Positions 28,485 to 54,389 of a stretch of DNA of 64,000 nt are shown here, piece by piece. Every line of letters starts with the position of its first letter. Position 1 is the first letter of the stretch. The notes under the pieces were generated by a model. That model did not search any database, was not told the origin of the DNA, and worked only from the letters and a program-made list of their open reading frames with translations. This DNA is from Bacteroidaceae bacterium. Its GTDB lineage: Bacteria; Bacteroidota; Bacteroidia; Bacteroidales; Bacteroidaceae. The translations under genes and the position numbers were made by a program. The DNA is taken from assembly GCA_017407905.1 (NCBI GenBank), contig JAFQVS010000045.1, positions 8,940 through 72,939 of the forward strand, given 5' to 3'.

Positions 28485-28540
28485 AACGCAAGGTCGCAAC
28501 GCAGCATATAAGACAATAATTGCCACGACCTTGCGTTTTT
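28485..28540 (+). terminator. Putative terminator after argH
   Basis: 12-bp stem AACGCAAGGTCG (28485-28496) / CGACCTTGCGTT (28526-28537), followed by TTT. The loop is large (about 29 nt). Confidence 0.45.
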
Positions 28541-28563
28541 AAATTGCAGAAACAACAGAGAAT

Positions 28564-29067
28564 ATGAAAAAATTTTTTTTATTGCTAATCACAGCCCTCA
28601 CCACATTATCGTGCGACACAGAATCACCCTACTCGGGCTACTCGGTGTTCTTCACCTGCGACGCATCGTTCCACCCCTTTAATCAAGCGAGCAGCTACGG
28701 GCAATTTATCACCATAAGACGCAAAAGCTCAACATCTTACGAGGTAACCGACGCACAAGGCACAAAGCACACACACAACCTCACCGAGGCCGAGGCCCGA
28801 CAAAAATTCTACTACGGCCTCGGAGGACTAATCATCGGCACCCCCTCGATGGAAGATGGACAAATATGGGCCTACGACCTTGCCTGTCCCAACTGCGAAA
28901 TGGCCCGCTACCGCCTGCAAACCGACCACATAGGACGCGCCTCGTGCAACAACTGCGGCAGCATCTACGACCTTAACTGCGGCGGAATACCCATAGAAGG
29001 AAAATCGCGCATACTGTGGCGCTACCGCGTGCACACCGCCGGAACATTCATCACCGTGCAGAATTAA
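28564..29067 (+). CDS. Hypothetical lipoprotein with CxxC...CxxC zinc-ribbon-like motif
   Basis: 167 aa. Lipobox LTTLSC, and later ACPNCEMARYRL...ASCNNCGSIYDL. Confidence 0.55.
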   Translation: MKKFFLLLITALTTLSCDTESPYSGYSVFFTCDASFHPFNQASSYGQFITIRRKSSTSYEVTDAQGTKHTHNLTEAEARQKFYYGLGGLIIGTPSMEDGQIWAYDLACPNCEMARYRLQTDHIGRASCNNCGSIYDLNCGGIPIEGKSRILWRYRVHTAGTFITVQN

Positions 29068-29191
29068 GCCTTTTCCCCGCTCGCACCCCACGTCCCTAAA
29101 CATTCGCACCCCGCAAAAGAGCAAGACACCCCTCCCAAGCCGCACTACAGCCTCTTCAGAGTGCTATTTTTTAATTTAGTAAAGAAACTTT

Positions 29192-29222
29192 TTTGAAATT
29201 AGCACAAAAACCCTTATCTTTG
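29192..29222 (+). promoter_or_regulatory. Bacteroidetes-type promoter for tRNA-Leu
   Basis: TTTG at 29192-29195, a 19-nt spacer, then TATCTTTG at 29215-29222, about 58 nt upstream of the tRNA. Confidence 0.65.
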
Positions 29223-29280
29223 CACCCGTTATCGTTGTCGCAATGGTAAGACTCCGGCTTCGGCGGTAACTTTTAAGGTC

Positions 29281-29366
29281 GCTCGAATGGTGGAATCGGT
29301 AGACACGAAGGACTTAAAATCCTTTGGCATTTAAACGCCGTGCGGGTTCAAGTCCCGCTTCGAGTA
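29281..29366 (+). tRNA. tRNA-Leu (anticodon TAA)
   Basis: The acceptor stem GCTCGAA / TTCGAGT has one G-U pair. The D-arm is GGTGGAATCGGTAGACAC. The anticodon stem-loop AAGGA-CTTAAAA-TCCTT puts TAA at positions 34-36. There is a long variable arm and a T-arm GCGGGTTCAAGTCCCGC. The discriminator is A, and CCA is not encoded. Confidence 0.9.
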
Positions 29367-29373
29367 CTCGGTT

Positions 29374-29412
29374 AATCTCTTGTAAGTCGTTGATTTATGA
29401 GAGATTTTTTGA
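29374..29412 (+). terminator. Weak hairpin plus T-tract after tRNA-Leu
   Basis: AATCTCT (29374-29380) pairs with AGAGATT (29400-29406), followed by TTTT. The stem is short and the loop long. Confidence 0.4.
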
Positions 29413-29637
29413 TACTTTCTTAAAATATAGGGTTCAAAAGCAAAAATCGGGGTAGGAATTTCACAAACGAGCCACCATTGTCAAAGCAAATAACACTCGG
29501 GGAGGAAAGTGCGGGACTACAGTTTGCCACGTTCCTCTCCCGTCCCCTTTTCACAAAAAACACCTTACTAACAAATTATTGTCAAAAAGATTCACTAAAT
29601 TATTAGCTGTAAGTTGTTATAATCGCACTATATTCAC

Positions 29638-29645
29638 TATCTTTG
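29638..29645 (+). promoter_or_regulatory. Candidate -7 box (TATCTTTG) upstream of the FISUMP lipoprotein gene
   Basis: TATCTTTG lies 39 nt upstream of the ATG at 29684. This supports the internal ATG over the TTG at 29579 used by the ORF track. Confidence 0.5.
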
Positions 29646-29683
29646 CTGTACTGATTAAGAATTTTCACAAGCACTCCAAAAGA

Positions 29684-31042
29684 ATGAGAATAAGTAACAA
29701 TCTATTTAATCTGTTCACGTTGTTGATAGTCGGCCTCGCCGTATGCTCCATAGGCGCTTGCAGCGTCGATGACGCCGAGCCTCTATTTAAGGAGACTACA
29801 AACAACAATATCACCATAGACACAACCGGTGTTGCCGTTACAGGCGAGATAGAGAAACAAGGCATCACATACGCACATATCAAGGGGTATGCCAATTTAA
29901 ACCTTCTGCCAACGGGCAGTGGCGAGATAGGCGTGGAAATATGCCCGTCGGGCGAGGAGGTATCGGCCCACCAAAAGACCTCAAGCACTTTATCCGACAA
30001 TGCCTTTGTGATAGAGTTTGACAATCTCACCCCCGATACAGAGTACAGATACCGTTCATTCGTCCGAAGCGACGAGCGTACATACTACGGGCAATATAAC
30101 ACACTCACAACCAACGCCCTCTACCCTATCACCACCACTGTGGATGCCACCGACTTAACCCGCACCTCGGCCACAATAATCTCGACCGTACAAACTGCAT
30201 TGGCCGATCCCATAGACAATCTAATGGTGGGAGTGGCATACTCATTATCCGAGCAGGCCTTTGAAACACCATCCGAGGAGATTATTTTCTGCGGCGAACA
30301 ATCGGCCGGCGACGTCCCTGATGGGATACTCACCGTAACGCTTCGAGAGCTCAGCGAGGCAACCACATATTATTACACAACATATACAAAGGCCAGTGGC
30401 GAATATTGCTTCGCCAAGATAAAAAGCTTCACCACCTACGGAGACGATTACACCCCATCGGGCGCAGTTGACCTCGGCCTCAGTGTAATGTGGGCCACTT
30501 GCAACATCGGTGCAGACTCCCCCGAAGAGTACGGCGACTATTATGCTTGGGGCGAGATTGAGCCTAAGGAGAAATATGAAGAGGGCAACTATAAATGGTA
30601 TGACAAGTTCACAGGCAGCTATATTAAATATTGCACAGATGCCACAATAGGAACAGTTGACGATAAAACCGTGCTCGACCCCGAAGATGATGTAGCACAC
30701 GTAAAGTTAGGTGGCGGATGGCGTATGCCCACCGAGGCCGAAATAATTGAATTGTGCAAAAAATGTACTTGGGAAAAGGATACAACCTACAATGGTATTG
30801 AAGGTGCTATTGTCATCGGCCCCAATGGGAACAGCATTTTCCTTCCCGCAGGAGGATATTATTCAAAAGGCCTTTATAATAAAAAAGAAACAGGATATTA
30901 TTGGGCATCGACATTAGGAACATCGGGGCGTAATGGTGATAATTATCGACCTAAATACGGAGAGTCTTTTAACACTAACGGCATCGAGACATCATACCGC
31001 AATCGTTATTACGGTTGCTCTGTTCGCCCTGTTATAAAATAG
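29684..31042 (+). CDS. Lipoprotein: two Ig/FN3-like modules plus a C-terminal FISUMP / DUF1566-type domain
   Basis: The start was moved to ATG 29684 (MRISNNLFNLFTLLIVGLAVCSIGAC lipobox). The C-terminus has GLSVMWATCNIGA...YYAWGE...GGWRMPTEAEIIEL...YYWAST...CSVRPV. This is the Fibrobacter-succinogenes-major-paralogous / DUF1566 pattern. Confidence 0.8.
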   Translation: MRISNNLFNLFTLLIVGLAVCSIGACSVDDAEPLFKETTNNNITIDTTGVAVTGEIEKQGITYAHIKGYANLNLLPTGSGEIGVEICPSGEEVSAHQKTSSTLSDNAFVIEFDNLTPDTEYRYRSFVRSDERTYYGQYNTLTTNALYPITTTVDATDLTRTSATIISTVQTALADPIDNLMVGVAYSLSEQAFETPSEEIIFCGEQSAGDVPDGILTVTLRELSEATTYYYTTYTKASGEYCFAKIKSFTTYGDDYTPSGAVDLGLSVMWATCNIGADSPEEYGDYYAWGEIEPKEKYEEGNYKWYDKFTGSYIKYCTDATIGTVDDKTVLDPEDDVAHVKLGGGWRMPTEAEIIELCKKCTWEKDTTYNGIEGAIVIGPNGNSIFLPAGGYYSKGLYNKKETGYYWASTLGTSGRNGDNYRPKYGESFNTNGIETSYRNRYYGCSVRPVIK

Positions 31043-31065
31043 CTCATATTTACCGATTACACCAA

Positions 31066-31100
31066 AATTGGCACAAAAGATAATTTCTTTTGTGCCAATT
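31066..31100. terminator. Hairpin terminator between the convergent FISUMP gene and CHAT-A
   Basis: Perfect 14-bp stem AATTGGCACAAAAG (31066-31079) / CTTTTGTGCCAATT (31087-31100), flanked by A/T runs on both sides. Confidence 0.75.
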
Positions 31101-31197
31101 ACATTTTATTCCTAATTTACGGCTATTTTTAAGGGGGGGATGCTGCTTACGACAGCTGCTATCGCCTTACATTTTTAGGAACAAGGCTTAGAGGCTA

Positions 31198-33459
31198 TTA
31201 TTCTATTCCATCCAACAGGATAAATGCAGCCCAATATTGAGGAGAGGCCCATTTTGCGTAACTGCGCACACGGTTTTTAGCGATTTTAAGAGCCTCGTGC
31301 TTAGACTTTCCCGCCATCCAATGCTTGTAAAACTCGGTCATAAGCACCTGTGTGGCATCATCATCCACCTTCCAAAGGGACATCAGAATGGCATCGGCAC
31401 TTGCCATCTTAAAACCACGCTGGAGGCCGAACACGCCATCCGAGGATATATCTCCCCGGGCCGTTTCACACGCACTGAGGACAACAAGGTCGAGCCCCTG
31501 TAAATCCAGCGTAGAAATCTCTTGCGCCGTCAGGACACCATCCTCCAGCCCCTCGGGGATGGGCGCACCGTTATAAACATTATCGGCACCCGAGAAGAAC
31601 AGTCCGCTACGCAACAGCGGGTTATCTTTATCGCCACCCCTACTATCCTTATTGTGATAGAATCCGTGAGTAGCAATATGAATAATCTTCTTTTGCTGTC
31701 CGCTCAGGGCCTTGAACGACGCCTCTGTTCCCTCGTTGGCAATATATGCCTTAGCCGAGATATTGGCCTCGTGCGAGCTATTTATGATTGAGGTGATACT
31801 GTCTGCCTCGACTCTTGTTCCCTTAAGATAAGGTATTTTTACTATCGCCGCACGCTCGGCACGCGTGTTATCCTCGACAAAGACAATATCGCGCTTACGA
31901 ACAGCCGGATAGTTGTACATATCGGCCACCATATCACGCGTACTCATATCATACGTTAATCCACCATAAATGGCAGCATCCCGTCCATCCTTTAAGCTCC
32001 GTCCCGTAATCAATTCTCTGGTAGATGAGAGACGATACACATCAAAGACATCGGCTATACTGTGATACGATTCAATTTCTCCATTCTTCATCACCGGCTC
32101 GATAAATGGTAGATACTCTATGCCCGTAACCAACAGAGCACCGTCGGCCGAAAAATAGATGCGTCCCTTATCTTTGGTTGGGAAATATTTAACAATATCA
32201 TCCGACCAGATGGCATTGCTCAGTCTCCACAAGCCGTCCATATCCTCTTTGGCATACTTTTGAAAGGGATTTCCCGACAAATGGCTATCTAACCCCTTGT
32301 ACGTACTTACTGTATCGCGTTTACTCTTAGACCGGAGAAAGTCGGGCACTAAATCCTTGAACGAGAATTTCGGAGCATCTTGCAGCGATACGTAATTATT
32401 CAATTTCACAATCTTGGGCGACGACCAACGCTTTTTCAGCAGGATGGCACCATACTCATTGCTTGTCGTACGATAAAATTCTATGGCTAAATCATCGTTC
32501 GATAGCTGATTGCGAACATCCTTCCACGTAATTGACAGCTGTGGGATAGTATATTCCTGTCCCTGCTCGCGCAGAGCCCCGAGAATGACATAATCGAGCG
32601 AGTCGAGAGTACTTTGCGCTGCCCCCGCGAGTGTCAGCCTCTTTCTAATGGTTAAATTATCAATAGCCCTTTTGTTGCCACTCTCATTGACATAACTCTC
32701 GAAGCTGACTGTTGTGTTAAGCAGCAGACCTTTGGAGAGCAACAAAGCATTATAAGCCGCCGACGCAATAGAGGGCATTCTTCCATCTGAAGAATGTGCC
32801 AAATCAACAGTTTTATTGATATATTTTGCCGCCACATTCCAATAAATATTACGCTCCGACTCGCAGCTCGAACAAAATTCGTCTTTTATCAACTGAATAT
32901 AAGAGTTATACCCCTTATTATGATATTTACTCGATTTCTTATATTTCAACCGTTCGGCATACAATCGCGACAGCTCTAATAGAGCATTCAAATAGACCTC
33001 GCTTCCTTTACCAAAATAGGCCTCCTTCAGACGGCAAGATTTTTTTGAAGACTGCACCGCCATAAAATCGCGGCCCGAGTTATACTCAATCTTGGATTTT
33101 ATATCTAAATAAAAAATCTGGTTGATTGTATCTTTACCTTTGAAGCCCCCCTTCCCGATTTTCTCAAACAGGATATTACTCTTCTTTAGCAACTCCTTTC
33201 CCAGCTCATTATCGCCTGCATCAGCACACACCGCGGCACACCACATCAAGCAATCGGCATATTGAAGGCTCTGTGCAGAATATCGTTTTTTGTACAATTG
33301 CAATAACTCATTAAGTGCCGGAGCAATATCTTTTGTGTCCCTATACAGCCGCTCTTGAATCTCGTTTTTCAGAGACTGCACCCTTAAAGAATCATTTGTC
33401 GATGCCAATATATAAACACAGCACAGCAAAGAAAGCAAAAATATATTATATCGTTTCAT
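31198..33459 (-). CDS. Exported TPR + CHAT-domain (caspase-fold) protein, short paralog (CHAT-A)
   Basis: The likely ATG is at 33459 (MKRYNIFLLSLLCCVYILAST signal peptide); the ORF-track start at 33468 is a TTG. The C-terminal CHAT core has IHIATHGF (His) and VVLSACETARG (Cys), then GVFGLQRGF...SLWKVDD...YWAAFILLDGIE. Confidence 0.88.
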   Translation of the reverse strand: MKRYNIFLLSLLCCVYILASTNDSLRVQSLKNEIQERLYRDTKDIAPALNELLQLYKKRYSAQSLQYADCLMWCAAVCADAGDNELGKELLKKSNILFEKIGKGGFKGKDTINQIFYLDIKSKIEYNSGRDFMAVQSSKKSCRLKEAYFGKGSEVYLNALLELSRLYAERLKYKKSSKYHNKGYNSYIQLIKDEFCSSCESERNIYWNVAAKYINKTVDLAHSSDGRMPSIASAAYNALLLSKGLLLNTTVSFESYVNESGNKRAIDNLTIRKRLTLAGAAQSTLDSLDYVILGALREQGQEYTIPQLSITWKDVRNQLSNDDLAIEFYRTTSNEYGAILLKKRWSSPKIVKLNNYVSLQDAPKFSFKDLVPDFLRSKSKRDTVSTYKGLDSHLSGNPFQKYAKEDMDGLWRLSNAIWSDDIVKYFPTKDKGRIYFSADGALLVTGIEYLPFIEPVMKNGEIESYHSIADVFDVYRLSSTRELITGRSLKDGRDAAIYGGLTYDMSTRDMVADMYNYPAVRKRDIVFVEDNTRAERAAIVKIPYLKGTRVEADSITSIINSSHEANISAKAYIANEGTEASFKALSGQQKKIIHIATHGFYHNKDSRGGDKDNPLLRSGLFFSGADNVYNGAPIPEGLEDGVLTAQEISTLDLQGLDLVVLSACETARGDISSDGVFGLQRGFKMASADAILMSLWKVDDDATQVLMTEFYKHWMAGKSKHEALKIAKNRVRSYAKWASPQYWAAFILLDGIE

Positions 33460-33464
33460 ACTCT

Positions 33465-34007
33465 TCAAAATGTAGTTTTTATACCAAGCCCTATTCCACT
33501 AAAGGTGCGTTCGTTGCGACAACTGAAATGCGACACTCCCACTTTTATATTCTTGTTGACATCCAATAAATAGACGGTAGAAGCATCTATTGCGGCCGCC
33601 TTTTCTCTGAGCCTTTTTCCCCATCTGAAGAAGGAATATGGAATAGTCATAGTTAGAGCAACACCGCAAGGAATCGCAACCCACGTAGAAACATCCGTTC
33701 CTGTTACGACATATACGGTGGCTGCATATAGCCCCAGCGCAGTAATAACCCCAACCGCCTCGACCTCGGCAGCCCTCATTCTTAACATTCGCTTCTTGTT
33801 TTGCATTTCAAAGTCGTATGCTCTGTTCATAGAGTTTATATTCATATAATACTCGGCCGACAGCATCGGAAGCTCGGCTATACAACTATCCTGCATCGTC
33901 TCAATAGTTTCCGTGCCATTAGTTTGCGAGTACAAGGCCGAGCAAACGATTGATACTAATATAGTAATGAGCAATCTTTTTAGTTTCATAATCCTACAAA
34001 TTACCAT
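33465..34007 (-). CDS. Small exported membrane protein (signal peptide plus 2 predicted TM helices)
   Basis: 180 aa, with an alternative ATG at 33989. The signal is MKLKRLLITILVSIVCSALYSQ. Hydrophobic helices are VGVITALGLYAATVYVV and WVAIPCGVALTMTIPYSFF. The protein ends ...GIGLGIKTTF. Its start overlaps the stop of the upstream gene (ATGGTAA), and its stop lies 5 nt before the CHAT-A ATG. Confidence 0.6.
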   Translation of the reverse strand: MVICRIMKLKRLLITILVSIVCSALYSQTNGTETIETMQDSCIAELPMLSAEYYMNINSMNRAYDFEMQNKKRMLRMRAAEVEAVGVITALGLYAATVYVVTGTDVSTWVAIPCGVALTMTIPYSFFRWGKRLREKAAAIDASTVYLLDVNKNIKVGVSHFSCRNERTFSGIGLGIKTTF

Positions 34008-34789
34008 TTTATTGTTCGTGTTATTATCGACGTGTCAAAGAGTTTTCTTGTCGAGAAAATTGGGAACGAAATTTTTGCTTCGTAATAGCCTCTTTGGTCT
34101 TTTACATTATTTAAAGAGTGATAATAAGCAATCGCATTCCTATCGAGTTGATGCAAAATATAATATCCCGCTCGTAATTCAAGTTTTATAAATGAGAATT
34201 TTGCATTTAATCCATAATAAATAGAGGCTGCAAAATTGTTAAAGCACTCATCATTAAACCCTTGATAGCTAAAAGTCTCATCGTACTTAATACGCTTGTC
34301 GAGCAAAATCTCAGCCTTAGCACCTGCACAAAATACCAACCAAGAGAAATTTACATCGGTAGTAATCCAATGGGTGTGCATTCCGAGGGTGCGAAAAAGT
34401 CCCTTGTCGAACGCAAACCTCTCATATTTATATCCTAAATTGACGCCTAATCGAAGCTGGTCATATTGAGTACTATAAAATTCACTCCCTACGCCCACAT
34501 CGACAAAAGATGAGTATATGGTTGTCATATTATCTGGAATTGCAGTAAAATCATTATACTCGAATGTTCCCTTATATATACTCCCTAAGGTACAATTGAT
34601 ATATAAATCACAGCCTATTAGGTTGGCCGTGGATTTTCGGGGCAATATCTTGACGTTGTCAATATCATCACTAAGGATGTATTTAACATAGTCAGTTTGA
34701 GCCTCGGAAATATAAGGGATAGCACAGAGGCATCCTACAAACAGGAGTTTAATATTTCTCAAGATAAATGTATTTAATTGCTCGCACAT
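34001..34789 (-). CDS. Exported protein, beta-barrel-like outer membrane candidate
   Basis: 262 aa. Signal peptide ...LLFVGCLCAIPYISEAQ, alternating hydrophobic/aromatic strands and an aromatic C-terminus (..TRTIKW). It overlaps the upstream gene by 41 nt. Confidence 0.55.
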   Translation of the reverse strand: MCEQLNTFILRNIKLLFVGCLCAIPYISEAQTDYVKYILSDDIDNVKILPRKSTANLIGCDLYINCTLGSIYKGTFEYNDFTAIPDNMTTIYSSFVDVGVGSEFYSTQYDQLRLGVNLGYKYERFAFDKGLFRTLGMHTHWITTDVNFSWLVFCAGAKAEILLDKRIKYDETFSYQGFNDECFNNFAASIYYGLNAKFSFIKLELRAGYYILHQLDRNAIAYYHSLNNVKDQRGYYEAKISFPIFSTRKLFDTSIITRTIKW

Positions 34790-35462
34790 AATAACTCTTT
34801 TTCTTTAATCTACCATCTTTTCTATCATAAGAACCAACAAGGGGTGCAACTATTGCCATATTCGAGGGGTCGGCATTCTCGTTTACAACACCCTCCTGAT
34901 TATAATTGCAATAATCCTCGGCGCAGGTCCAATAAAAATTCTCCTCATTTAAGGGCACACCACCAATTTTCGATAATACTGCGTTCAGTTCATCTAAATC
35001 TGTATTGATAACTAAGAAATCCCATGCCTCTTCCCTTGTAGGCAGACGCCAAGAGCTACTCGAGGATGGCTTATCTGTCGGGTTCTTCTTGTTGCACCAA
35101 TTCATAGCTGGATAATTCTCAATTCCCCTGCTTTTCATCAAATGAAGCATAGCCGTACCAAAAGAATCATCACCATACACTCTCTTAGGGAACCTCAGAG
35201 TATCCTCAATTTGATATACAGTCTCACCCAAAGGCCCCCACGGCAAATAAGCCTCATCTGCCGACACTACTATAATACAACTGTTGTAACTATCATATTC
35301 ACAATGTACGACGACGCCCTTATTGCCATATTCATCCACGTAGGTGTCATACAATTGATACACCTTTTTTGTCTCGTCAAAAATTATTTCATCGGATGTA
35401 TAACCGCACCCCAATAGCAGTGGGATAATAATGCAGATTAAAAATTTTAAATAATTAGTCAT
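34749..35462 (-). CDS. Lipoprotein with DUF1566-like domain
   Basis: 237 aa. Lipobox IIPLLLGC. SWRLPTREEAWDFL ... FYWTCAED ... SYYVRAIKYI matches the DUF1566 pattern (WRLPT..E / YW[ST] / V-R-x-[IV]). Confidence 0.7.
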   Translation of the reverse strand: MTNYLKFLICIIIPLLLGCGYTSDEIIFDETKKVYQLYDTYVDEYGNKGVVVHCEYDSYNSCIIVVSADEAYLPWGPLGETVYQIEDTLRFPKRVYGDDSFGTAMLHLMKSRGIENYPAMNWCNKKNPTDKPSSSSSWRLPTREEAWDFLVINTDLDELNAVLSKIGGVPLNEENFYWTCAEDYCNYNQEGVVNENADPSNMAIVAPLVGSYDRKDGRLKKKSYYVRAIKYIYLEKY

Positions 35463-35468
35463 ATTGCG

Positions 35469-36332
35469 CTAATAAAAAATACAAGTATCCAATTCCAAAG
35501 CCGAAACATCAAATGTTGCCACAAAAGGGCGATGTTCCTCATTTTTTATAATATGTTTAACCGAATTGTTACCATCGGAATCTTCGGTTCGCATTCTAAT
35601 GGCTATTTCGTCGTCGGCATTGCACAAGGATATTGGAACGATGATAGAATCCCTGTGCGAGAGATAATAATATTGATACTCATATAATCCCGATTCAATC
35701 TTCTCAATATCCTTAAAACCAAATGCCTCGACACAGTCTATTGAAGCGTTCAGGCTTTCGGCATCGCCAAAATTGGTAAACACACAATAGCCATTATAGG
35801 TCATCGGCCTGAGTTTTACAGAAAAAATCTGATTCGACGGTAACGCGTGCAACGAGGCCGACAACAGCACATTATACTGCGGCTCTGCTTTTCTATCGAC
35901 CATATACAGATAGATATTATCGTAGCGGTTGGTACCCAGCTGACACCAAGCCTCTGAGAAATTCAGAAGCTCGCCCTTCTTTAATATATCGGCCATAAAG
36001 ACAAAATAATAAGTATTGTTATTATTCAAATGGCTGAAGGTTATTTGCGTCTCGCCTAAATGGGGCAAGAGGCGAGTTTGCGTATCCAACAGCTGCCCGC
36101 CATTATCGTAGCAGTAGCATACTGTTCGCAACGCATAGGCAGTGTCAATCTTGTTGCTGCATCCCATCCTAAATTCTCCATCATCGAATGAGAGGATATT
36201 CGAGAAATAGTCGCCCGAATCCAAAATAAATGTTACGCCCCTCTGCGACGTGTCGGCCCACTCGTCGAAATTCTCCTTACAGCTTGTCAGCAAAAAGAGT
36301 GAAATGATAAGAAGTACCCGTATGCTTTTCAT
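35469..36332 (-). CDS. Hypothetical lipoprotein
   Basis: 287 aa. Lipobox SLFLLTSC. I recognise no motifs. Its start overlaps the stop of the upstream gene by 4 nt (ATGA). Confidence 0.6.
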   Translation of the reverse strand: MKSIRVLLIISLFLLTSCKENFDEWADTSQRGVTFILDSGDYFSNILSFDDGEFRMGCSNKIDTAYALRTVCYCYDNGGQLLDTQTRLLPHLGETQITFSHLNNNNTYYFVFMADILKKGELLNFSEAWCQLGTNRYDNIYLYMVDRKAEPQYNVLLSASLHALPSNQIFSVKLRPMTYNGYCVFTNFGDAESLNASIDCVEAFGFKDIEKIESGLYEYQYYYLSHRDSIIVPISLCNADDEIAIRMRTEDSDGNNSVKHIIKNEEHRPFVATFDVSALELDTCIFY

Positions 36333-36976
36333 ATTTTAAATGGAATTTCATAAGTTAGTCCGACACCTATTCTACCCCTCTCGAAGGCCGATTTATACAA
36401 GCCGTAATAGTTGTACTCCTTTGTCTCGAACAGATATTTCTGATTTATTGCGGGGGCAAGGTCGTACTCGTAGTACAACGAGGCTCGCCACCTTTTTATT
36501 TTAAAGCCGATTTTTGCACCGACCGAGAAATAGTCGTCGGCAAGATTCGCGTCCGACGTTCTTGTATCCGACAATCGGCTATGATAGGCAGAGTTTATCG
36601 CCCAATGTGAGGCTATTTCTCCTGCAACGAAAAGCGAGAATGACTTTCCGCGTATCACATTCAGCCTCAACGATGCACACAGCAGAATTTCTTGAGTAGA
36701 TATATACTCGTCGCGCCCGCCGAAATAGGGGTTGCGAATATTATATTTGAGCCCAAAATCGGCATTTAATAAATTGCGCGACGAACCAATGCCGACAGCA
36801 ATTTTGGGCGAGAAACTGTAATTGTAATTTGCCGCCGCATCTACTCCAATATCAAAATGGTAATATTCAATTCTGCCGAACCGCTCTTTCTTAATTCTCC
36901 TATAATCGGGCTGTGCCCAAATAGAATTAAGCATTAAAAAACATAAAAAAGCTGTTATAATGACTTTTCTATTCAT
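36329..36976 (-). CDS. Exported small beta-barrel-like outer membrane protein
   Basis: 215 aa. Signal peptide VIITAFLCFLMLNSIWAQ. G/Y/F-rich alternating strands (FDIGVDAAANYNYSF, ADFGLKYNI, SVGAKIGFKI, ASLYYEYDL, IGVGLTYEIPFKI) resemble small porin-family barrels. Confidence 0.6.
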   Translation of the reverse strand: MNRKVIITAFLCFLMLNSIWAQPDYRRIKKERFGRIEYYHFDIGVDAAANYNYSFSPKIAVGIGSSRNLLNADFGLKYNIRNPYFGGRDEYISTQEILLCASLRLNVIRGKSFSLFVAGEIASHWAINSAYHSRLSDTRTSDANLADDYFSVGAKIGFKIKRWRASLYYEYDLAPAINQKYLFETKEYNYYGLYKSAFERGRIGVGLTYEIPFKI

Positions 36977-37045
36977 AATCTATTCGTTCTTTTCATTAGG
37001 GGGGGTGAAGCCTCAATATTGAGACATTGGGATTTTTGGGGCCGA

Positions 37046-37318
37046 TTAAGAGCCCCAGATATTATCCCAACCGTTGCCGCCCTTACGTTTTTTTATGAAC
37101 GAAGAGCCGGCGTCGAGCTCAATGGCAATAGTAACATTGGATTTTTCAAAAACTTTGGCAGCATCGGCCTCGGGCACCTCATAGGGATAACTCTTACCCG
37201 TCATATCAATTGTCAGGAAAGGCTCCTGCGCCCAAACAGCAGGGCTCAAAAGAATAAGGAGGAGTAACAACATTCTCTTTAAAGAAAAGATTTTTTTGGT
37301 CATATTCTTAAATTTCAT
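37046..37318 (-). CDS. Small secreted protein (about 60 aa mature)
   Basis: 90 aa with a strong signal peptide KRMLLLLLILLSPAVWAQ. It lies 69 nt upstream of the coupled gene run on the same strand. Confidence 0.5.
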   Translation of the reverse strand: MKFKNMTKKIFSLKRMLLLLLILLSPAVWAQEPFLTIDMTGKSYPYEVPEADAAKVFEKSNVTIAIELDAGSSFIKKRKGGNGWDNIWGS

Positions 37319-37556
37319 TTTTCCTTTTTTGTGTAAAAATAATTAACTCGGGCTGCTCCAATATTCCGAGAATAAATAGAGGCACAAAGCTGCGCTCGGA
37401 CATTTCAGAGCAGATGCGAGTATGCGAACCCACAATAAATTCGCATACTCGTGCAAATATATTATTTTTTTTAAGAATTTATTTAAATCTGTTAAGAATT
37501 AAACTTATAAAATATTTTCTCGAAATAAAGGTCGAGACTTTTAAGTTTTTATAATC

Positions 37557-42125: not shown

Positions 42126-42196
42126 ACTCTTAATTTATAATCGGTTAATTATATCAATATTTTAAGGCTAAAAGCTCGGTGGCAAGTGCTTAACTC

Positions 42197-45100
42197 TTAT
42201 TCTATTCCATCCAACAGGATAAATGCAGCCCAATATTTGGGGTCGTCCCACCCCTTCTCCTTATGCGAGCGCACCAACTGCTTGGCAAGCTCAAGCGCCT
42301 CGCGTTTACTCTTGCCTTCGACCACCCAAAAGCGGTAAAATTCGGTCATAAGCATACAGGTAGCCTCGTCATCTACTTTCCACAGCGACATTAGGATGCT
42401 ATTGGCACCGGCCTTCTTCAGGCCGCGCTGAAGGCCAAAAACACCCTCGCTTGTTACATCGCCCAACCCTGTTTCGCAGGCCGAGAGTGTAATAAGCTCT
42501 GTTTGCGTTAGGTCGAGGGCCGCAAGCTCGCGTGCCGTCAGGATTCCATCATCGACATTATCGGGAATTTCCATTCCCCGCATATATGACACGGCGCCCG
42601 CCATCAACAATCCGCTGCGGCTCAATGCCTGCATCTCTTCGGTATCATATTCACTCGACTTTTTGACACCATTCCACGCCTGAAAAAAGCCGTGTGTTGC
42701 AATGTGCACAATAGCCGTGGCGAACCGCTCAGTTGCTTTACCGCCTCCTCGGTTGCAGAGACGCCCGTAAACAGTTCGGCACCCACCTTTTCGCCTTGCA
42801 GTAATTTATCAATCTCGCCGACCTCAATTTCCGTTCCGGGAAGATAGATGCTTGCACCGCGCTCGAAAGCACGTTGCAACGAGACTATATCACGATTGGC
42901 GGTACCATTTTCACCGGCAGCCGCCCGCAACGACATTTCTTGCCACTGCTCGCTGCCGAGCTCATACTCCACCCCTCCGAACAACGCCGCTGTTAATTCG
43001 CGCTGCGCCTTTTTCGGACGAATAATCTCCCGCGTATTCGACAAGCGATACATATTGTAGGCATCGCACATTGCGCTTCCGTCGGGCCGCGGCAACGACT
43101 CCATAGGCAACTGATGCAGCGCCATTGATGGAGAAAAATAGATATTCTTCACCCCAGCAAGCACCTCGTGCAATGGTTCCCATATAAGCTCGTACTGTCG
43201 TTGTCGGTTGTTTGCGGCAAGCGACAACTCCTCCTCGGGGCACAAGGCTTTAAACTGAGGTTCGAAGCCCTTTTTCAATATAAGCGCAATGATGTACGAC
43301 ACGCCATCGTCGGGCGATGCACCTTGCACAAATTCTATTGCAATTTCTCCATCCCTCAATGCACTGCGCACATCCTGCCACGAGAGTGTAAGCTGCCGTG
43401 TATAATCCCCAAAATTATGCGAAGAAGTTTCAAGAATATCATATATTCCAATTTGTTTTTCACCAAGTGAATCACGTTCGGCAGCTGACAAATTGCCGGC
43501 CATCTTTTTACGAATACTCCTTAATTCATTGCACAAAGCAATAAGAGACTCATTCCCCGACTCAAGCATAGTTCGCTCCAATTCGGCCTGCGAGCGCAGC
43601 AACAGCCCTTTGATAAAAAGAGCCGCATCGTAGGCAAAGCCACAAAAAACAGGGGTTTTATATTTTAGTACGTAACCCGTTGCTTTATTCTGCAACTGCC
43701 AAGATTTAGTATGAAAAAGATATTCGCCATAGAAAGCCGACATATATTTACCTCTAATAAATCCACGTAAATCCTCCACATCACATCGCATTGTTTCAAC
43801 CAAATGCTGTTCAAATAAATCGGTATTATTTTGTAGTTGATGACAAAGCGCCAAAAGCTCGGAAACACGTTTTATCAAATCATTTTCTTGAATATCATCT
43901 CTAAAACTGAAAGAAGAAAAATAATTAGACCTATAAACATTATCACACACTAATGGGTTATTCTGTAAGTTCTTAGGAAGGCCCATAATGCGCTCACCAA
44001 TACGAATAGCCTCATCGCAACGGCCGGCATCATATTCTATACGCATTTGCCAATACAACAAGGCTCTGTAAGTCCTTGTGGCTGTATAATTTCGAGCCTC
44101 GTGCACCCGTATGGCCTCCGAAATTAAATCGGGAATATCCGAGGGAAGAATATGGTTAATATCATCGAATATATTCCAAGACATTAGGCTTGCAGTGGCA
44201 AAAATTATAAAATTATCGTAACTTAGATTCCCCGTGCCGCACTTCTGCTTCACATCGTTTATCATCTTTTTTGTTGTAGCAACCATAAAACCAATATACT
44301 CCTCATCGCGTGCTTTTGCATAAAAAGATGATTTATTTCCAATGGCCGTCAAAAGAATTATACCCTTTAACTCGGGATTTTCGTTCCATAGAGAATCGTC
44401 GCGAGCAATTACGTTATTCACCAGATTCAGCAGCTCCTGTGCATCAGTAAACCCTATTTCTACCTTTCTCAACGTATTACAAGCCATATTAAGGTAATCC
44501 TTATGGTGCCTGTTGGCAAGCAATAGAGAGTCGAACGTGTGCGCAATATCACTCTGGCTGCAACCACTTTTTTTCATAGAATACGCTAATCGAAAAGATA
44601 AATTAGAGCCATCTGTATCTCCCAATGTAACATATTCCGGTATCCAAGATACGCGCCCAAATAACCGTTTGTAAATCTCTATTGCCTTACCATACTCACC
44701 AACTTCTTCATCATAATAAATATCGGCAATTTTATTTAAACAATCATTTGAAGCCTCGTCTAACGGAATAGAATCGAGCGCCCCCAACTCATACAAATAT
44801 TTTTGTATAACATACGAGTACTTATTTATTTCATTGCCGTAAAGCACTCTTTCGACACGTAGTATCTCGCGCAAGATGCCTTTCAATTCATCATCTAACT
44901 CATCAAATGTTAAAACCTTATATGGTGCTTTTAAGAATAAAGCACTATCGAATAGTTTGCAAAGAACATCTTCATAATTTTCTGTTGCAATATTCTCATT
45001 GTCCTGTTTCATACGTTCGCTGTAATTGCGACACACATCATACAAACGAATATAATCGTGTGTACCATCGCAACCATAATAGAAGTTAAAGAACGCACTC

Positions 45101-46686
45101 CAACACTCATCGCTATCGGCTCCAAACAGACGCTCGGCTGTGTAAAAATTCATCTCTTTGACTATATTCAGAGCAAAATTATTTTGATATATAAGACTGT
45201 CGGGACGAATACCCTCGGGTAGGAAACCAAGATTATTCGTTAGGTCCAATTTCTTATTGACACTAAAAAATCTCGAAATAATATTGTTTGTGATGGCCGC
45301 CTCTGATAGAGATAAATTCGATATATTATTCTTGTACTCATCGCAAACTACACGAAGCCATTCGGTTGCCTCGCCGAAACGATGCGCTCCCATATAAGTG
45401 GCAAATGTCAACATTTTGTATGTTAAGCCCTTACCTTTTTTGAATCTTATTTCGTCGGACATTCTGTGCAGATGCTCGCAGGAGTAGGCTGCGCCTTGAT
45501 GTATGAACAGATAAAAGAGCGTATATACATTTACCTTATCGCTCAGAAGAGCCTCTACCCTCTTCCACATTTTTGTTATTTTCTTGGGGCTGTTATCCGG
45601 GAGTGTGGATTTTGCAGCCAAAGCAATAATTGTTAATGTAGTATCATCGGGGGTGCTCAATGCCGCACGATTGCTCAGCACCTCGTCAAACTGCAAGCGG
45701 GCCTCATCGTTGCGGTTCATATCCCTTAACAACAGGCCACAAGTCAAGCGCTGATAGTCGGCCTGCCAAGAATCCTCCAATTTCACATAGAGCGAAATGA
45801 GACTGTTTTTCAATTCCAATGCCTCTTGGAAAAGGCCCAAATTATAGTAATATCTGCTCACATCGTACAAGGCATTGGCATAGGCGTATTTATCGAGAGT
45901 ATATAACTCTTCTGTTACGCCGACGAGTTGCCGCCAAGCATTTTGCAATTGCTGCTTGTCTTGTGTTAAGTAATACAATCCACACAGACTGCGCAAGGCA
46001 TTATAGTGCATCCACATAGGCTTTTCAGGAAGCCTTGCAAGCTGCTGTTTACGAGCATCAATAGCCTCTTTATAATAGGTTTCTATGGCCATTCGTTGAG
46101 CATAAAAATCCAACACACGACAATAATATAGTCCGTGCGTGGCGCCCTTCATCTCGAAAATTGTTTTTACCCTTACCAATAAATCTCGGAAATCTGATTT
46201 TCCAAGATAGTCTTTTTCGGCCCACATTTCAAGCACCTTTAGCAACAGGAGGGCATAGGCGTCTGTCTCGCCGAAACGCTCGTAATACAATTCGGCACAT
46301 TTTTGATATACTTTTGCAGCCTCGCCGGGGTTGGATGCCTCTAACGCAAGAGCCTCTTGACGCAAAGAGTCTATTTCAATTGTCAGACGGCGGTCGGTGG
46401 GGGTAATATCGAATCCCCACGGGTTTATCTCGGCAGCGCGGGCTGTGTCTCCCAAATGAAAATAACAGCCGGCCAGCCACTCGCGGCCGTACCCCCAGCG
46501 AACGTTGGTGGAATCAATCTCGGCCCTGTCCAATTTTTGCACCGCCTCGAACAGAGGTATCGCCTCGCCATATTTTGCCTCATTATATAGCTCTACGCCT
46601 TTGGCAAACAACTCATCGCTGTACCTACTTTGGGAAAAGCCAACTATTGGAAAAAATAACACAAGCAGTAACAAACGGTATTTCAT
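42197..46686 (-). pseudogene. Exported giant TPR + CHAT-domain protein (CHAT-C), interrupted by a -1 frameshift near 42720
   Basis: Two ORFs (42622..46746 and 42197..42709) together reconstitute a paralog of CHAT-B. The likely start is ATG 46686 (MKYRLLLLVLFFPIVGFSQS). The long frame decays into ..KQLSGSPRLLCTLQHTAFF.., while the +2 frame reads ATAIVHIATHGFFQAWNG, continuing into LSACETGLG ... YWAAFILLDGIE. Confidence 0.85.
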
Positions 46687-46955
46687 AGTACTATTTTTTG
46701 CGGTCTCTAAGAAAAATTGAAACACCGGGTTATATTTTGGGAGCAACTTCCCGAGTGCAAAGAAAATTATTTTACATAAAAAATCAAAATTATTTGGAAG
46801 CTGTTAAAATTTATATCGCCGAATTTTTTATAAGTGCCAACAAGCGCAAACTTTTTTTTAGGAATTTAAACAGCTTCTTACTTTTTACGATAAAAAGAGA
46901 CTCACTTTCTTATAATAAAAAGAGAATTATCGCACACTGTTCCAAAAAATATAGC

Positions 46956-46963
46956 TACATTTG
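46956..46963 (+). promoter_or_regulatory. Candidate -7 box (TACATTTG) for the hut operon
   Basis: TACATTTG lies about 90 nt upstream of the ftcD ATG and overlaps the palindrome TGCATA-A-TATGCA. There is no clear -33 TTTG. Confidence 0.4.
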
Positions 46964-47053
46964 CATAATATGCAGATATTAGTTGCATCGACACTGTGAA
47001 ATAATTTGATATAAATTCAAACTGCCACTAAAAAACTAACAGATAAAAACACT

Positions 47054-54304: not shown

Positions 54305-54389
54305 GAAACCGACAAGAGCGTCTCGAGCAGAGAATAATCCCCCCCAAAAAAAATAAACCCTTTCTAAACAAGTTATTATAAATTCAAGT

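Follow-up and report, generated by a model that had tools for sequence, protein, structure and literature searches.

How did a low-GC block of genes for exported proteins come to lie between a tRNA-Leu gene and the hut operon of a Bacteroidaceae bacterium, and what might these proteins do? Within the 64,000-nucleotide stretch analyzed here (hereafter the window), the original prediction had noticed an AT-richer island beside tRNA-Leu by eye, and computation of windowed GC and GC3 bears this out. GC is 41.7% in the segment 29410..46901 (17.5 kb) and 51.2% in the remaining window. In 2-kb windows GC is 0.36-0.47 across 29-47 kb and 0.50-0.57 in the flanks, and GC3 is 0.36-0.50 in the island genes and about 0.60-0.70 in the flanking housekeeping genes (Mann-Whitney, island vs. 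flanking housekeeping genes: p=1.7e-4 for GC3, p=4.5e-5 for GC). Low GC by itself is not unique to the island, since three further low-GC patches occur in the window (70-2007, 24292-25476, and 53942-57837). The borders are given by blastn against the sister species L031 (93% nucleotide identity), where homology is lost between 29409 and 46902. The last stretch in common is the hairpin that terminates the tRNA transcript (alignment conserved to 29409), and the island begins just beyond it, 42 nt 3' of tRNA-Leu(UAA). It is a horizontally acquired accessory segment without an integrase, set between this terminator and the ftcD promoter region (Table 1), and its host belongs to an uncultured, Alistipes-related lineage of Bacteroidales from the ruminant gut.

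The same site can be followed in eight related species, which share a 100% identical tRNA-Leu sequence and retain it upstream of ftcD (argH is also retained in five of the eight). The gap between tRNA-Leu and ftcD measures 234 bp, 1.07, 1.4, 1.9, 2.2, 4.3, 4.9, and 6.7 kb in these species; the site is empty in the first and holds different, small and unrelated cargo in the other seven, including a GH95 fucosidase, Ig-like giant proteins, CHAP-M23-CHAP, a DUF4595 lipoprotein and a MarC-like protein. The island genes of the window are found at this site in none of the eight relatives, the sister species included, and neither is an integrase. The tRNA-Leu/ftcD interval is thus a hypervariable site, in keeping with the lineage-specific hypervariable locus offered as one option by the original prediction. 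Most of the alternative cargo encodes exported glycosidases and adhesins rather than defense functions, which counts against the conflict system considered below.

Could the block instead be a vertically inherited core locus, its low GC a mere by-product of biased amino-acid or codon use in proteins that are exported and weakly expressed? The sister species shares the low-GC genes at 53942-57837, and a second strain, L088 (98% nucleotide identity), has diverged from the window equally in island and flanks (about 98% identity in both), as such a reading would have it. The equal divergence also indicates that the species did not gain the island very recently. However, absence from all eight relatives with the site contradicts a syntenic core locus, the shift in GC and GC3 contradicts a composition like that of the flanks, and homologous gene sets in other genomes sit at different sites and are likewise low in GC relative to their own flanks. 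A core locus is therefore extremely improbable.

A second possibility is that an integrative element (island, ICE or prophage) once targeted the tRNA and later lost its integrase and att sites, leaving the present remnant. Adjacency to a tRNA gene, low GC and internal decay by a frameshift and a deletion are what such a remnant might display. Yet Pfam, NCBIfam, and PADLOC detect no integrase, transposase or phage domain in the island, and neither an att repeat nor a direct-repeat copy of the 3' end of the tRNA was found. By arithmetic from their coordinates, the ten ORFs fill about 94% of the island, which leaves no space for a hidden integrase or its pseudogene. The junction lies past the tRNA and its terminator rather than inside the tRNA, the eight relatives carry small cargo or none and no integrase, related gene sets elsewhere occupy sites without a tRNA, and no close relatives of the island were found on plasmids or viral contigs. 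A decayed integrative element is thus quite unlikely, and the earlier statements that mobility genes and a tRNA 3'-end copy are lacking, and that this is no freshly integrated element, hold. Integrase-free chromosomal hotspots of accessory genes between core genes are a general concept. The site resembles them in its conserved core flanks, species-specific content, lack of mobility genes, nearby tRNA and low GC, and this side of the finding is ordinary. Since mobility genes are absent, the island has probably been exchanged by homologous recombination via its conserved flanks, not by site-specific integration.

Table 1. Features of the island and its landmarks (positions in the window).
Feature	Position	Strand	Evidence and remarks
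tRNA-Leu(UAA)	29281..29367	+	Left landmark of variable site; ARAGORN; Rfam RF00005, 59.5 bits
tRNA terminator hairpin	29374..29406	+	Terminator scan; 15-bp stem and T-run
452-aa lipoprotein (from ATG)	29684..31042	+	Lipobox SIGAC, then acidic SVDDAE
Hairpin terminator	31066..31100	+	15-bp stem; separates two convergent genes
CHAT1, exported TPR-CHAT caspase-like protease, 753-756 aa	31198..33468	-	Pfam CHAT, E=1.8e-47
174-aa exported or membrane protein	33465..33989	-	Signal peptide, hydrophobic hairpin, C-terminal ...GIKTTF
262-aa exported protein	34001..34789	-	Beta-rich, OMP-like alternating pattern; module position conserved
237-aa lipoprotein, DUF1566/Lcl_C (C-type-lectin-like) domain	34749..35462	-	Lipobox LLLGC; profile matches, alignment
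287-aa lipoprotein, module marker	35469..36332	-	Lipobox LLTSC; alignments, motif survey
215-aa exported small outer-membrane beta-barrel-like protein, first module gene	36329..36976	-	Weak OMP_b-brl and DUF5777 matches
90-aa chimeric ORF	37046..37318	-	Deletion scar, from comparison with strain variant L088
CHAT2, exported, 1522 aa	37557..42125	-	Pfam CHAT, E=8.4e-51; long helical/TPR region, CHAT domain C-terminal
CHAT3, exported TPR-CHAT, 1496 aa, frameshifted	42197..46686 (ORF pair to 46746)	-	Pfam CHAT, strain comparison
ftcD	47054..48760	+	First hut operon gene, right landmark of variable site; Pfam; synteny in 80 relatives

The ten ORFs had been described as all exported. Read by eye, each of the ten does appear to open with a Sec or lipoprotein signal: three carry lipoboxes (Table 1) and seven SPase-I type signals, with Gln apparently at +1 in six of the seven, in agreement with the Bacteroidetes Q-rule (PMC5837995). 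Two of the ten are not intact, as the 90-aa ORF is a deletion scar and a frameshift divides a single gene into the ORF pair 42197-46746. PADLOC and NCBIfam recognize none of the island proteins, but the description of the content as being of unknown function overlooked a conserved six-gene module and three paralogous exported TPR-CHAT caspase-like proteases.

CHAT1 is the best resolved of these proteases. Its AF2 model is of good quality (pLDDT 86, pTM 0.84), and H597, H601, and C667 are invariant across 49 homologs. The best structural matches from Foldseek are Csx29, the TPR-CHAT protein of craspase (type III-E CRISPR Cas7-11; 7y8t_B, 3.7e-12), separase (5e-10) and SAVED-CHAT (further matches include 8eey_B, TMq 0.48, 9hm7, and 8tl0). 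All share helical repeats followed by a caspase-like domain, and the latency until ligand binding that characterizes the known systems may extend to CHAT1. These systems are, however, cytoplasmic and activated by RNA or cyclic nucleotides, whereas the proteases of the window are exported, and no CRISPR or CBASS genes occur in the window. Full-length homologs of CHAT2 are rare; signal peptides are present in the best 16 (P0001-P0016) of the 40 homologs listed for it, and genes of its type stand in tandem with a CHAT3-like gene in L084-L087.

A closer parallel is DdvA, the one characterized periplasmic TPR-CHAT protein, for which phage sensing in the periplasm and self-cleavage have been proposed (PMC11506125). 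Like the island proteases it is a TPR-CHAT protein outside the cytoplasm with a His-Cys dyad and a separase/craspase-type fold (Foldseek E=5e-10 between CHAT1 and 8rot_A), and the proposed sensing of an envelope or phage signal followed by proteolysis is similar. Other exported Bacteroidota CHAT proteins of the same family adjoin genes that read as ECF-sigma-like and anti-sigma-like (Pfam gives no sigma or anti-sigma match for them), together with a Peptidase_C14 caspase gene. In contrast to DdvA, the proteases of the window are free proteins with cleavable signal peptides and no fusion to an anti-sigma domain or TM helix, there is no sigma factor in the island, and there is no match at the sequence level. 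Their partners here are lipoproteins and small OMPs, joined elsewhere by a TIR-TM-lectin protein.

The six-gene module runs in the order OMP-like protein (215 aa), lipoprotein (287 aa), DUF1566 lipoprotein (237 aa), OMP-like protein (262 aa), membrane protein (174 aa) and a CHAT protease of about 750 aa, here CHAT1, and it recurs in at least eight lineages at unrelated chromosomal sites. The same order is kept at 26-67% amino acid identity in L128, L168/L169/L176, L170, L171, and L172, and is judged from gene size and Pfam matches in L175 and L177. L128, L168, and L170 have homologs of the 174-aa protein in the corresponding place, and L175-L177 have a size-matched gene there. The alignment of the 215-aa protein ends in a C-terminal aromatic signal (...Y.FPF). 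For the 237-aa family, Lcl_C is matched in five of six members (best E=1.1e-4, under Pfam's cutoff), and the motifs SWRLPT, YWTC, and VRAIKY are invariant. The 287-aa lipoprotein belongs to a small family (about 60 clusters in 1.84 billion representatives), marked by C-x-x-[DN]-F-[DN]-[EP]-x-x-D-[ST]-x-x-R beginning at the lipidated Cys. The module is conserved yet uncharacterized, and is a cell-envelope gene set built around exported TPR-CHAT proteases.

In other gut Bacteroidales the module has company, as a rule a receptor-like TIR protein that spans the membrane. A TIR-TM-FGE-sulfatase gene lies directly upstream of it in four cases (L170, L171, L172, and L177) and adjoins genes of the CHAT2 or CHAT3 type in seven others (L084, L085, L090, L109, L125, L140, and L155), and a 218-aa exported protein accompanies the module in seven lineages. 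Neighbors at related loci include MmeI, nSTAND1, and T5orf172. Both the TIR-TM-FGE gene and the 218-aa partner are absent from the island of the window. A link to the TIR proteins is seen in the 452-aa lipoprotein, whose gene is divergent from all other island genes. Its N-terminal part is FN3-like, and its C-terminal domain is lectin-type and DUF1566/Lcl_C-like (E=0.0027, profile positions 10-116 of 117); this lectin domain recurs, at 33% identity, as the periplasmic domain of the TIR-TM protein of L140, and a similar gene is present in the L175 system.

We consider a periplasmic proteolytic sensing or conflict system the best explanation of the locus, with a probability of roughly one half for the whole, island status included. 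Signs of conflict-like behavior are the MmeI, nSTAND1, and T5orf172 neighbors, the sigma-like, anti-sigma-like and Peptidase_C14 genes beside other exported CHAT proteins, and the codon differences between the two strains, for which nonsynonymous:synonymous counts are 34:30, 15:4, 10:5, and 8:2 in island genes and 3:15 and 4:22 in hut genes; DdvA supplies a precedent. The CHAT proteases would be latent and are placed in the periplasm, putatively, rather than on the surface. An envelope-borne ligand (for example a phage, a damage signal or the effector of a competitor) would be recognized by their helical-repeat regions or else by the small OMPs and lectin-like lipoproteins, upon which the activated His-Cys protease would cut envelope substrates. 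A candidate substrate is the 287-aa lipoprotein, with cleavage at the invariant Arg 13 residues past the lipidated Cys, a proposal for which the conserved Arg is the sole basis. In the full system of other genomes the signal may be handed to the single-pass, receptor-like TIR-TM-FGE-sulfatase protein, and its TIR domain would then act in the cytoplasm as the effector. As the TIR-TM-FGE protein and its 218-aa partner are missing, this signaling arm cannot work here as drawn, and the island would represent a version without the TIR gene, in partial decay. A TIR-TM-WG-repeat gene at 14399-16306 might be imagined as a substitute, which is pure speculation.

The domains recall the NTP-dependent "ternary" conflict systems with TIR, caspase-like and FGS (FGE-sulfatase/C-lectin) domains (Kaur et al., 2020, PMC7159879) and the DGR-diversified C-lectin sensors (PMC10907252). 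TIR, CHAT/caspase and FGE-sulfatase-type C-lectin domains, the last as predicted sensors, are common to both, as is a variable, paralog-rich conflict locus. A core of MoxR/vWA, STAND or GTPase type is not seen here, however (apart from the nSTAND1 neighbor at one locus), nor is a DGR, and protease and lectin domains are extracytoplasmic, with TIR linked via a single TM helix.

The comparison with L088 reveals signs of decay in this copy of the island, the other option offered by the original prediction being an old or degraded island. CHAT3 has lost one nucleotide at about 42720 (CCC to CC), shortly before the catalytic His motif HIATHGF, which places the two halves of the CHAT profile on separate ORFs; the gene is intact in L088. 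In the 90-aa ORF, the opening 68 codons of a 1495-aa exported sialidase-like gene run into the final 24 codons of a 57-aa ORF, with the junction at about 37116-37120 at a GAGCT microhomology. This ORF was left behind when a 4.4-kb deletion took out the sialidase-like gene, which is still present in the L088 island (neuraminidase model NF052328, 2e-73, below cutoff; BNR_3; sub-cutoff RicinB).

This enzyme bears on an alternative that we regard as possible if doubtful, namely adhesion or surface structure combined with foraging on host glycoproteins. The lipoproteins and small OMPs would form an appendage or adhesin complex, and gingipain-like CHAT proteases would mature lipoprotein precursors after the conserved Arg, with loss of the lipidated N-terminus (the role of Rgp toward type V pilins), break down host proteins beside the sialidase-like enzyme, or do both. 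Arg-gingipains are clan CD proteases; the segment that is removed from type V pilins is much longer than 13 residues, which counts against the comparison. The AF2 model of the 287-aa lipoprotein suggests that the fold is all-beta and possibly type-V-pilin-like: Bacteroidales fimbrial proteins of the type V pilus are its best Foldseek matches (3r4r, 5nfi, 3gf8, and 5nf4; E from 1.6e-4, TM about 0.25), albeit for a low-confidence model (pLDDT 58.7) and a protein with no pilin Pfam or PDB sequence match. An acidic, export-signal-like stretch precedes its conserved Arg, DUF1566 lectin-like lipoproteins are encoded alongside, and the other cargo of the site includes exported glycosidases and Ig-like proteins. 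Cleavage of lipoprotein pilin precursors by Arg-gingipains in Porphyromonas (PMC5954841) is a precedent that shares an exported clan CD cysteine protease, lipoprotein substrates and a conserved Arg shortly past the lipidated Cys, but CHAT and C25 are separate families, the putative pro-segment is short, and the usual fim/mfa gene set is absent. The tight linkage to a cytoplasmic TIR protein and the nSTAND1, restriction-modification and sigma/anti-sigma neighbors would also be left unexplained.

An unlikely alternative, which overlaps the preferred sensing or conflict system in that its function is likewise one of conflict, is immunity to interbacterial antagonism, in which the island would be an acquired immunity locus and its exported CHAT proteases would destroy invading toxins that act in the periplasm, T6SS effectors for instance. 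In the B. fragilis GA3 T6SS locus, the variable effector/immunity region is described as containing proteins with a CHAT domain (PMC11854122), at the level of annotation and speculation only, and T6SS or effector genes are absent in and near the island and in the related loci examined. Export, paralogy, strain variability and fast evolution fit such a role. Against a conflict function in general, it may be observed that the elevated nonsynonymous change, the paralogy, the decay and the low GC would also suit loci for surface antigens or niche adaptation.

The island between the tRNA-Leu(UAA) gene and ftcD carries three paralogous genes for TPR-CHAT proteins (Table), a content overlooked in the original prediction, which had described the cargo as being of unknown function. 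The Pfam CHAT profile (PF12770) matches CHAT#1, the short protein, at E=1.8e-47 and CHAT#2 at E=8.4e-51, and is divided between two ORFs in CHAT#3 (E=4.4e-10 and 2e-38); the motifs HIATHGF and LSACET are found in all three. Across 49 homologues of the short CHAT, His597, His601 and Cys667 are invariant. The AlphaFold2 model derived from this alignment (pLDDT 86.2, pTM 0.84) is made up of helical repeats at residues 5-301 followed by an alpha/beta domain at 327-752. A Foldseek comparison of this model with the PDB returned Csx29, the TPR-CHAT protein of Craspase (E=3.7e-12, TMq up to 0.48), the periplasmic domain of DdvA and human separase (both E=5e-10), and also SAVED-CHAT. PDB sequence searches with a single CHAT sequence and with the CHAT profile gave no match, and fold comparison alone succeeded. 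Signal peptides are present in P0001-P0016, the closest 16 of the 40 CHAT#2 homologues listed, and in these a conserved first TPR follows immediately after the cleavage site. The island CHATs are exported proteins with a predicted separase/craspase-type TPR-CHAT fold and an intact predicted catalytic dyad. Relatives of the short CHAT are common, forming at least 254 clusters at E<=1e-20; full-length relatives of CHAT#2 are rare.

Export signals can be read at the N-terminus of all ten island ORFs, as first proposed. Three carry lipoboxes (SIGAC, LLLGC and LLTSC) and seven have SPase-I type signals, of which six would expose Gln at +1 in keeping with the "Q-rule" of Bacteroidetes (PMC5837995). 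The segment had also been judged AT-richer by eye, and this is borne out by windowed GC (0.36-0.47 across 29-47 kb in 2-kb windows, with a minimum of 0.364 at 39-41 kb, vs. 0.50-0.57 in the flanks), by whole-island GC (41.7% vs. 51.2% in the remaining window) and by GC3, which is 0.36-0.50 in the ten island ORFs and 0.60-0.70 in argH, ftcD, hutU, hutH and other flanking housekeeping genes (Mann-Whitney p=1.7e-4). Composition alone would not single out the island, since three further low-GC patches are found within the window (Table).

Coordinates of the island, its borders and the other features discussed (window positions unless a related locus is named)
Feature	Position	Strand	Description
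Low-GC gene at window edge	70-2007	+	645-aa protein; GC 0.426
TIR-TM-WG gene	14399-16306	-	635 aa; N-terminal TIR_2, long acidic linker, one TM (~residues 343-362), seven WG beta-repeats; GC3 0.535
ORF adjoining Peptidase_C25 gene	17712-18914	-	400 aa
Peptidase_C25 gene	18944-22702	-	1252 aa; gingipain family, E=1.9e-95
Low-GC gene	24292-25476	+	394 aa; GC3 0.454
Lipoprotein gene between argH and tRNA-Leu	28564-29067	+	167 aa
tRNA-Leu(UAA)	29281-29367		called by ARAGORN and Rfam
Terminator hairpin of tRNA-Leu	29374-29406		15 bp; inside the 42 nt homologous with L031
Island	29410-46901		17.5 kb; ten ORFs
Lipoprotein gene	29684-31042	+	452 aa
CHAT#1 (short CHAT)	31198-33468	-	~753 aa
Fusion ORF	37046-37318		90 aa
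CHAT#2	37557-42125	-	1522 aa
CHAT#3	42197-46686	-	split into two ORFs
Frameshift in CHAT#3	~42720		1-nt deletion (CCC to CC)
Amidohydrolase (hutI-like) ORF	52336-53571		
tRNA-Glu(ctc) call	52550-52638	-	89 nt; ARAGORN
Second low-GC patch	53942-57837	+	GC3 0.34-0.46
Motif CA(G/A)GGTGGACAAAA	L022 3373-3383; L031 8160-8170; L042 7855-7865		70-85 nt downstream of tRNA-Leu

A search with the ftcD protein recovered 80 related loci, nearly all from ruminant-gut MAGs labelled Bacteroidaceae, Alistipes or Rikenellaceae. The metagenome contig L001 shares 99.996% identity with the window, L088 (98.1%) represents a second strain, and L031 (93% DNA identity) is the nearest distinct species. Homology with L031 spans the tRNA and the next 42 nt, stops at 29409 and restarts at 46902, ~150 bp before ftcD, and these two points therefore define the island. 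The order yciH-prt-pkc-(argH)-lipoprotein-tRNA-Leu...ftcD is kept in eight related species, the lipoprotein being absent in L031; more distant relatives carry other neighbours upstream of ftcD. Homologues of the island genes are found at this site in none of the eight, where the interval is either empty (234 bp) or occupied by a MarC-like membrane protein (1.07 kb), a small exported protein (1.4 kb), a CHAP-M23-CHAP peptidoglycan-hydrolase trio (1.9 kb), a DUF4595 lipoprotein (2.2 kb), an exported GH95 fucosidase with a sub-cutoff ricin-type lectin match (4.3 kb), a Big_5/DUF6359 giant exported protein (4.9 kb) or CstA with a Big_5 giant protein (6.7 kb). The cargo in relatives is of low GC in every case. 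Atypical composition combined with absence or alternative cargo between conserved flanks marks an acquired accessory segment or hotspot, and on the synteny in these relatives we rejected the view of the ten genes as a low-GC core locus.

No tyrosine or serine integrase, transposase or phage domain was detected in the ten island proteins using Pfam, NCBIfam and PADLOC, and with ~94% of the island coding (from gene coordinates) there is no space for a hidden integrase. A repeat search of 28500-48000 found no direct repeat of the tRNA 3' end (attL/attR), only the three CHAT paralogue blocks and chance matches; the absence of mobility genes and of a distal tRNA copy had both been anticipated. The spacer between CHAT#3 and ftcD contains an imperfect inverted repeat of 28 nt (75% complementary), which was likewise judged a chance match. 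Insertion inside the tRNA 3' end is contradicted by the homology with L031, which runs through the terminator hairpin. Plasmid and viral collections contain no close relatives of the island proteins, only distant generic CHAT proteins of <30% identity, and thus nothing in them points to a plasmid or phage as the vehicle. The original prediction had left a choice between an old or degraded island and a lineage-specific hypervariable locus. The differing cargo, the lack of integrase and att sites and a junction lying beyond the tRNA favour the latter and disfavour a degraded tRNA-targeting element. The observations support a lineage-specific hypervariable site, at which the island may have been exchanged by homologous recombination through the conserved flanks. 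As such, the island itself is an ordinary kind of feature, an accessory hotspot without an integrase.

Other features of this site were also noted. The motif CA(G/A)GGTGGACAAAA lies close to tRNA-Leu in three relatives with differing cargo (L022, L031 and L042) and extends to ~28 nt in L022 and L042. It was considered as a shared recombination site for the island and rejected, being absent from the window; it may be an ancestral-spacer remnant or a regulatory element. The 167-aa lipoprotein gene is kept in seven of the eight relatives retaining the site, with 50-54% identity in six and 86% in L005 (90-96% for its neighbour prt), and is a rapidly evolving envelope gene bordering the variable site. 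Positions 1-7880 of L031, upstream of tRNA-Leu, show no similarity to the argH-lipoprotein region of the window, and hence the left flank has also been rearranged or replaced in that species.

Comparison with the second strain reveals that the island varies and decays within the species. The frameshift in CHAT#3 falls immediately upstream of the catalytic His motif, and the orthologue in L088 is intact (1496 aa). Only one other contig, L001, covers the frameshift; it probably comes from the same population as the window, and an assembly error in the CCC run is for this reason a possible alternative. The 90-aa ORF is a fusion at a GAGCT microhomology: it begins with the initial 68 codons for a 1495-aa exported protein and ends with the final 24 codons of a 57-aa ORF, and both parents are present in L088. 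Of the ten ORFs with export signals, this one is no gene. The lost 1495-aa protein is predicted to be sialidase-like, its L088 copy matching a neuraminidase model at 2e-73 (below the model cutoff), BNR_3 and, sub-cutoff, RicinB. Island and flanks are equally diverged between the two strains (~98% nt identity). Nonsynonymous to synonymous differences number 34:30 in CHAT#3, 33:52 in CHAT#2 and 15:4, 10:5 and 8:2 in further island genes, vs. 3:15 in hutH and 4:22 in ftcD; these codon-difference counts are small and point to relaxed or diversifying selection on the island genes. The locus is variable, decaying and fast-evolving.

The short CHAT belongs to a conserved operon with envelope proteins. 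Five small genes and the short CHAT occur in the same order in independent lineages and at unrelated chromosomal sites, which elsewhere adjoin nusA-infB, transketolase, trmE and others. Amino-acid identity to the window is 32-53% in the related locus L128 and 26-67% across L168, L170, L171 and L172; gene size and Pfam matches alone place L169 and L176 with L168 and indicate the module order in L175 and L177. The members are, in order, a 215-aa beta-rich protein with an aromatic C-terminus (weak OMP_b-brl and DUF5777 matches), a 287-aa lipoprotein whose lipobox LLTSC is conserved across its family, a 237-aa lipoprotein with DUF1566/Lcl_C matches in five of six members of its family (sub-threshold but consistent, best E=1.1e-4), a 262-aa exported beta-rich protein, a 174-aa protein with a signal peptide and hydrophobic hairpin, and the CHAT of ~750 aa. 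The 174-, 215- and 262-aa products are likely small exported beta-rich or membrane proteins. The 287-aa lipoprotein family is a narrow marker of the module (1.84 billion representatives yield ~60 clusters at E<=1e-10) and has a strongly conserved motif directly after the lipidated Cys, C-x-x-[DN]-F-[DN]-[EP]-x-x-D-[ST]-x-x-R. Its AlphaFold2 model is weak (pLDDT 58.7, from eight sequences only), and the best Foldseek matches are Bacteroidales type V pilus proteins (3r4r, Mfa2, DUF1812 and Mfa3; E from 1.6e-4, TM ~0.25). As neither Pfam nor PDB sequence searches, including the lipoprotein profile against PDB, gave a match, a pilin-like fold is suggestive only.

In other genomes the CHAT genes are frequently linked to a TIR receptor-like protein. 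Four loci (L170, L171, L172 and L177) carry two further genes directly upstream of the module and on the same strand, one encoding a ~430-aa protein in which a single TM helix separates the N-terminal TIR domain from a C-terminal FGE-sulfatase domain (C-type-lectin fold), the other a 218-aa exported protein. This TIR-TM-FGE gene adjoins the module in four of eight module-carrying lineages, and a complete nine-gene operon is found in L177. The same pair precedes tandem long CHATs related to CHAT#2 and CHAT#3 in L084 and L085 and is also present in L090, L109, L125, L140 and L155; L086 has the 218-aa gene, preceded by a truncated ORF at the contig end, and L128 resembles a locus of the L125 type into which the module was inserted, with the 218-aa gene on one side and a CHAT on the other. 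A second TIR-TM protein of L140 has a periplasmic domain that shares 33% identity with the lectin-like C-terminal domain of the 452-aa island lipoprotein. Neighbours of related CHAT loci include MmeI, T5orf172, ResIII helicase, nSTAND1 and RyR-domain proteins. Both the TIR-TM-FGE and 218-aa genes are absent from the window's island, which encodes no TIR-domain protein. A separate subset of 12-13 loci resembles a split DdvA-DdvS, in that exported CHATs occur there together with an exported Peptidase_C14 caspase and with genes for an ECF-sigma-like and a one-TM anti-sigma-like protein; the sigma and anti-sigma labels are readings of the sequence, since Pfam gave no such match in these loci. Its members include L095, L106, L111, L113, L121, L133, L148, L158 and L162 (Bacteroidota metagenomes). 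In three loci, an FHA-like domain, also assigned by eye, is joined through a TM helix to trypsin.

What could be the role of exported CHAT proteins in this setting? PADLOC-DB v2 and NCBIfam gave no meaningful match for the island proteins, and PADLOC only generic TIR matches for the TIR-TM-FGE partner of other loci. DdvA, stated to be the sole characterised periplasmic TPR-CHAT, is a proposed sensor of a phage-associated signal in the periplasm, with self-cleavage (PMC11506125). It has an N-terminal zinc anti-sigma domain, a TM helix and an adjacent cognate ECF sigma gene, whereas the island CHATs have cleavable signal peptides and no sigma gene was found in the island. In type III-E Craspase, Csx29 is accompanied by Cas7-11/gRAMP and a CRISPR array; the island has none of these, and there are no repeat arrays in 28.5-48 kb. 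The conflict systems of Kaur et al. (PMC7159879) use the same vocabulary of TIR, caspase-like and FGE-sulfatase C-lectin sensor domains as the CHAT loci, and DGR-diversified sensors (PMC10907252) also have domains in common with them, but both are cytoplasmic and NTPase-centred whereas the CHATs here are exported. For CHAT domains in Bacteroides, the sole mention in the searchable literature is an annotation in a T6SS variable region (PMC11854122). The cargo appears to be a new variation on known TPR-CHAT and conflict-domain themes, and its functional reading is wholly computational.

We put the probability that the CHAT system serves envelope sensing or conflict through regulated proteolysis at about one half. 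The analogy with DdvA, Craspase and separase would make the CHATs latent periplasmic proteases, switched on by ligand bound at the repeat regions or via the lectin-like lipoproteins or OMPs. Once active they could cleave substrates in the envelope, and in full systems this would lead to activation of the cytoplasmic TIR domain. The main alternative, which we regard as rather unlikely, is that the genes serve surface structures, adhesion or foraging as a module, with the CHAT maturing lipoprotein precursors in a gingipain-like manner (PMC5954841). Type V (FimA/Mfa) pili are made from lipoprotein precursors, and the 287-aa protein likewise has a lipobox; Arg/Lys cleavage removes the N-terminal strand of the former, and the latter has a conserved Arg at +13 from Cys as a candidate site. 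The pilin-like hint of this lipoprotein, the sialidase-like gene of L088 and the nature of the other cargo at the tRNA-Leu/ftcD site all fit such a module, which leaves the linkage to TIR, sigma and defence genes unexplained. The island has no SusC/SusD pair of the kind found in polysaccharide utilisation loci, as Pfam detected neither a TonB-dependent receptor nor a SusD domain there.

A more specific form of the envelope-sensing reading, unlikely as it stands, would place the module in a trans-envelope pathway for immunity or signalling, hitherto undescribed, that gut Bacteroidales run with Toll-like logic. Lectin-like outer-membrane lipoproteins and small barrels would capture an external ligand, and the latent periplasmic TPR-CHAT would be activated to cleave the 218-aa protein, the 287-aa lipoprotein or the receptor ectodomain. 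The single-pass TIR-TM-C-lectin receptor would then trigger its own cytoplasmic TIR effector, and the window's island would be a variant with extra proteases and without the TIR gene.

TPR-CHAT caspase-like proteases are known as cytoplasmic executioners (separase, Craspase and SAVED-CHAT), DdvA being the single periplasmic case studied. A whole family of Sec-exported TPR-CHAT proteins is present in gut and rumen Bacteroidales, sharing a conserved operon with predicted outer-membrane proteins and lectin-like lipoproteins. Were the linkage functional, a Gram-negative cell would sense envelope events by proteolysis and relay them to a TIR effector, with a bearing on gut phage and competitor defence and on the question of where TIR and caspase immunity originated in evolution. 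The island supplies testable candidates in the form of catalytic residues, a putative cleavage motif and natural knock-out alleles.

Elsewhere in the window, the TIR-TM-WG gene, 13 kb from the island and with a GC3 below that of its neighbours, has the same design as the TIR-TM-FGE-sulfatase proteins, namely a cytoplasmic TIR, a single TM and a periplasmic binding domain; a functional link to the island would be speculation. The Peptidase_C25 protein has a size that we take to be that of a PorU-like type IX secretion protein, for which it is a candidate. The tRNA-Glu(ctc) call lies inside the hutI-like ORF and, without Rfam support, is most likely a false positive. Sigma-70 promoter scans are uninformative for Bacteroidota promoters. 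The sole match of the 645-aa protein is to MORN repeats (whole-protein E=3.2e-7, with no individual stretch passing). For the 394-aa protein it is a ribosomal L7/L12 C-terminal domain, matched at borderline level in the C-terminal part, and L12/ClpS-domain insertions occur in Bacteroidetes conflict-system proteins (Kaur et al., PMC7159879). The second low-GC patch encodes a thioredoxin, an 821-aa pyridine-nucleotide-disulfide oxidoreductase-rhodanese-TusA-DsrE fusion and a LysR regulator. Unlike the island it is kept at 93% nt identity in the sister species L031, and low GC there thus does not mean strain-specific.
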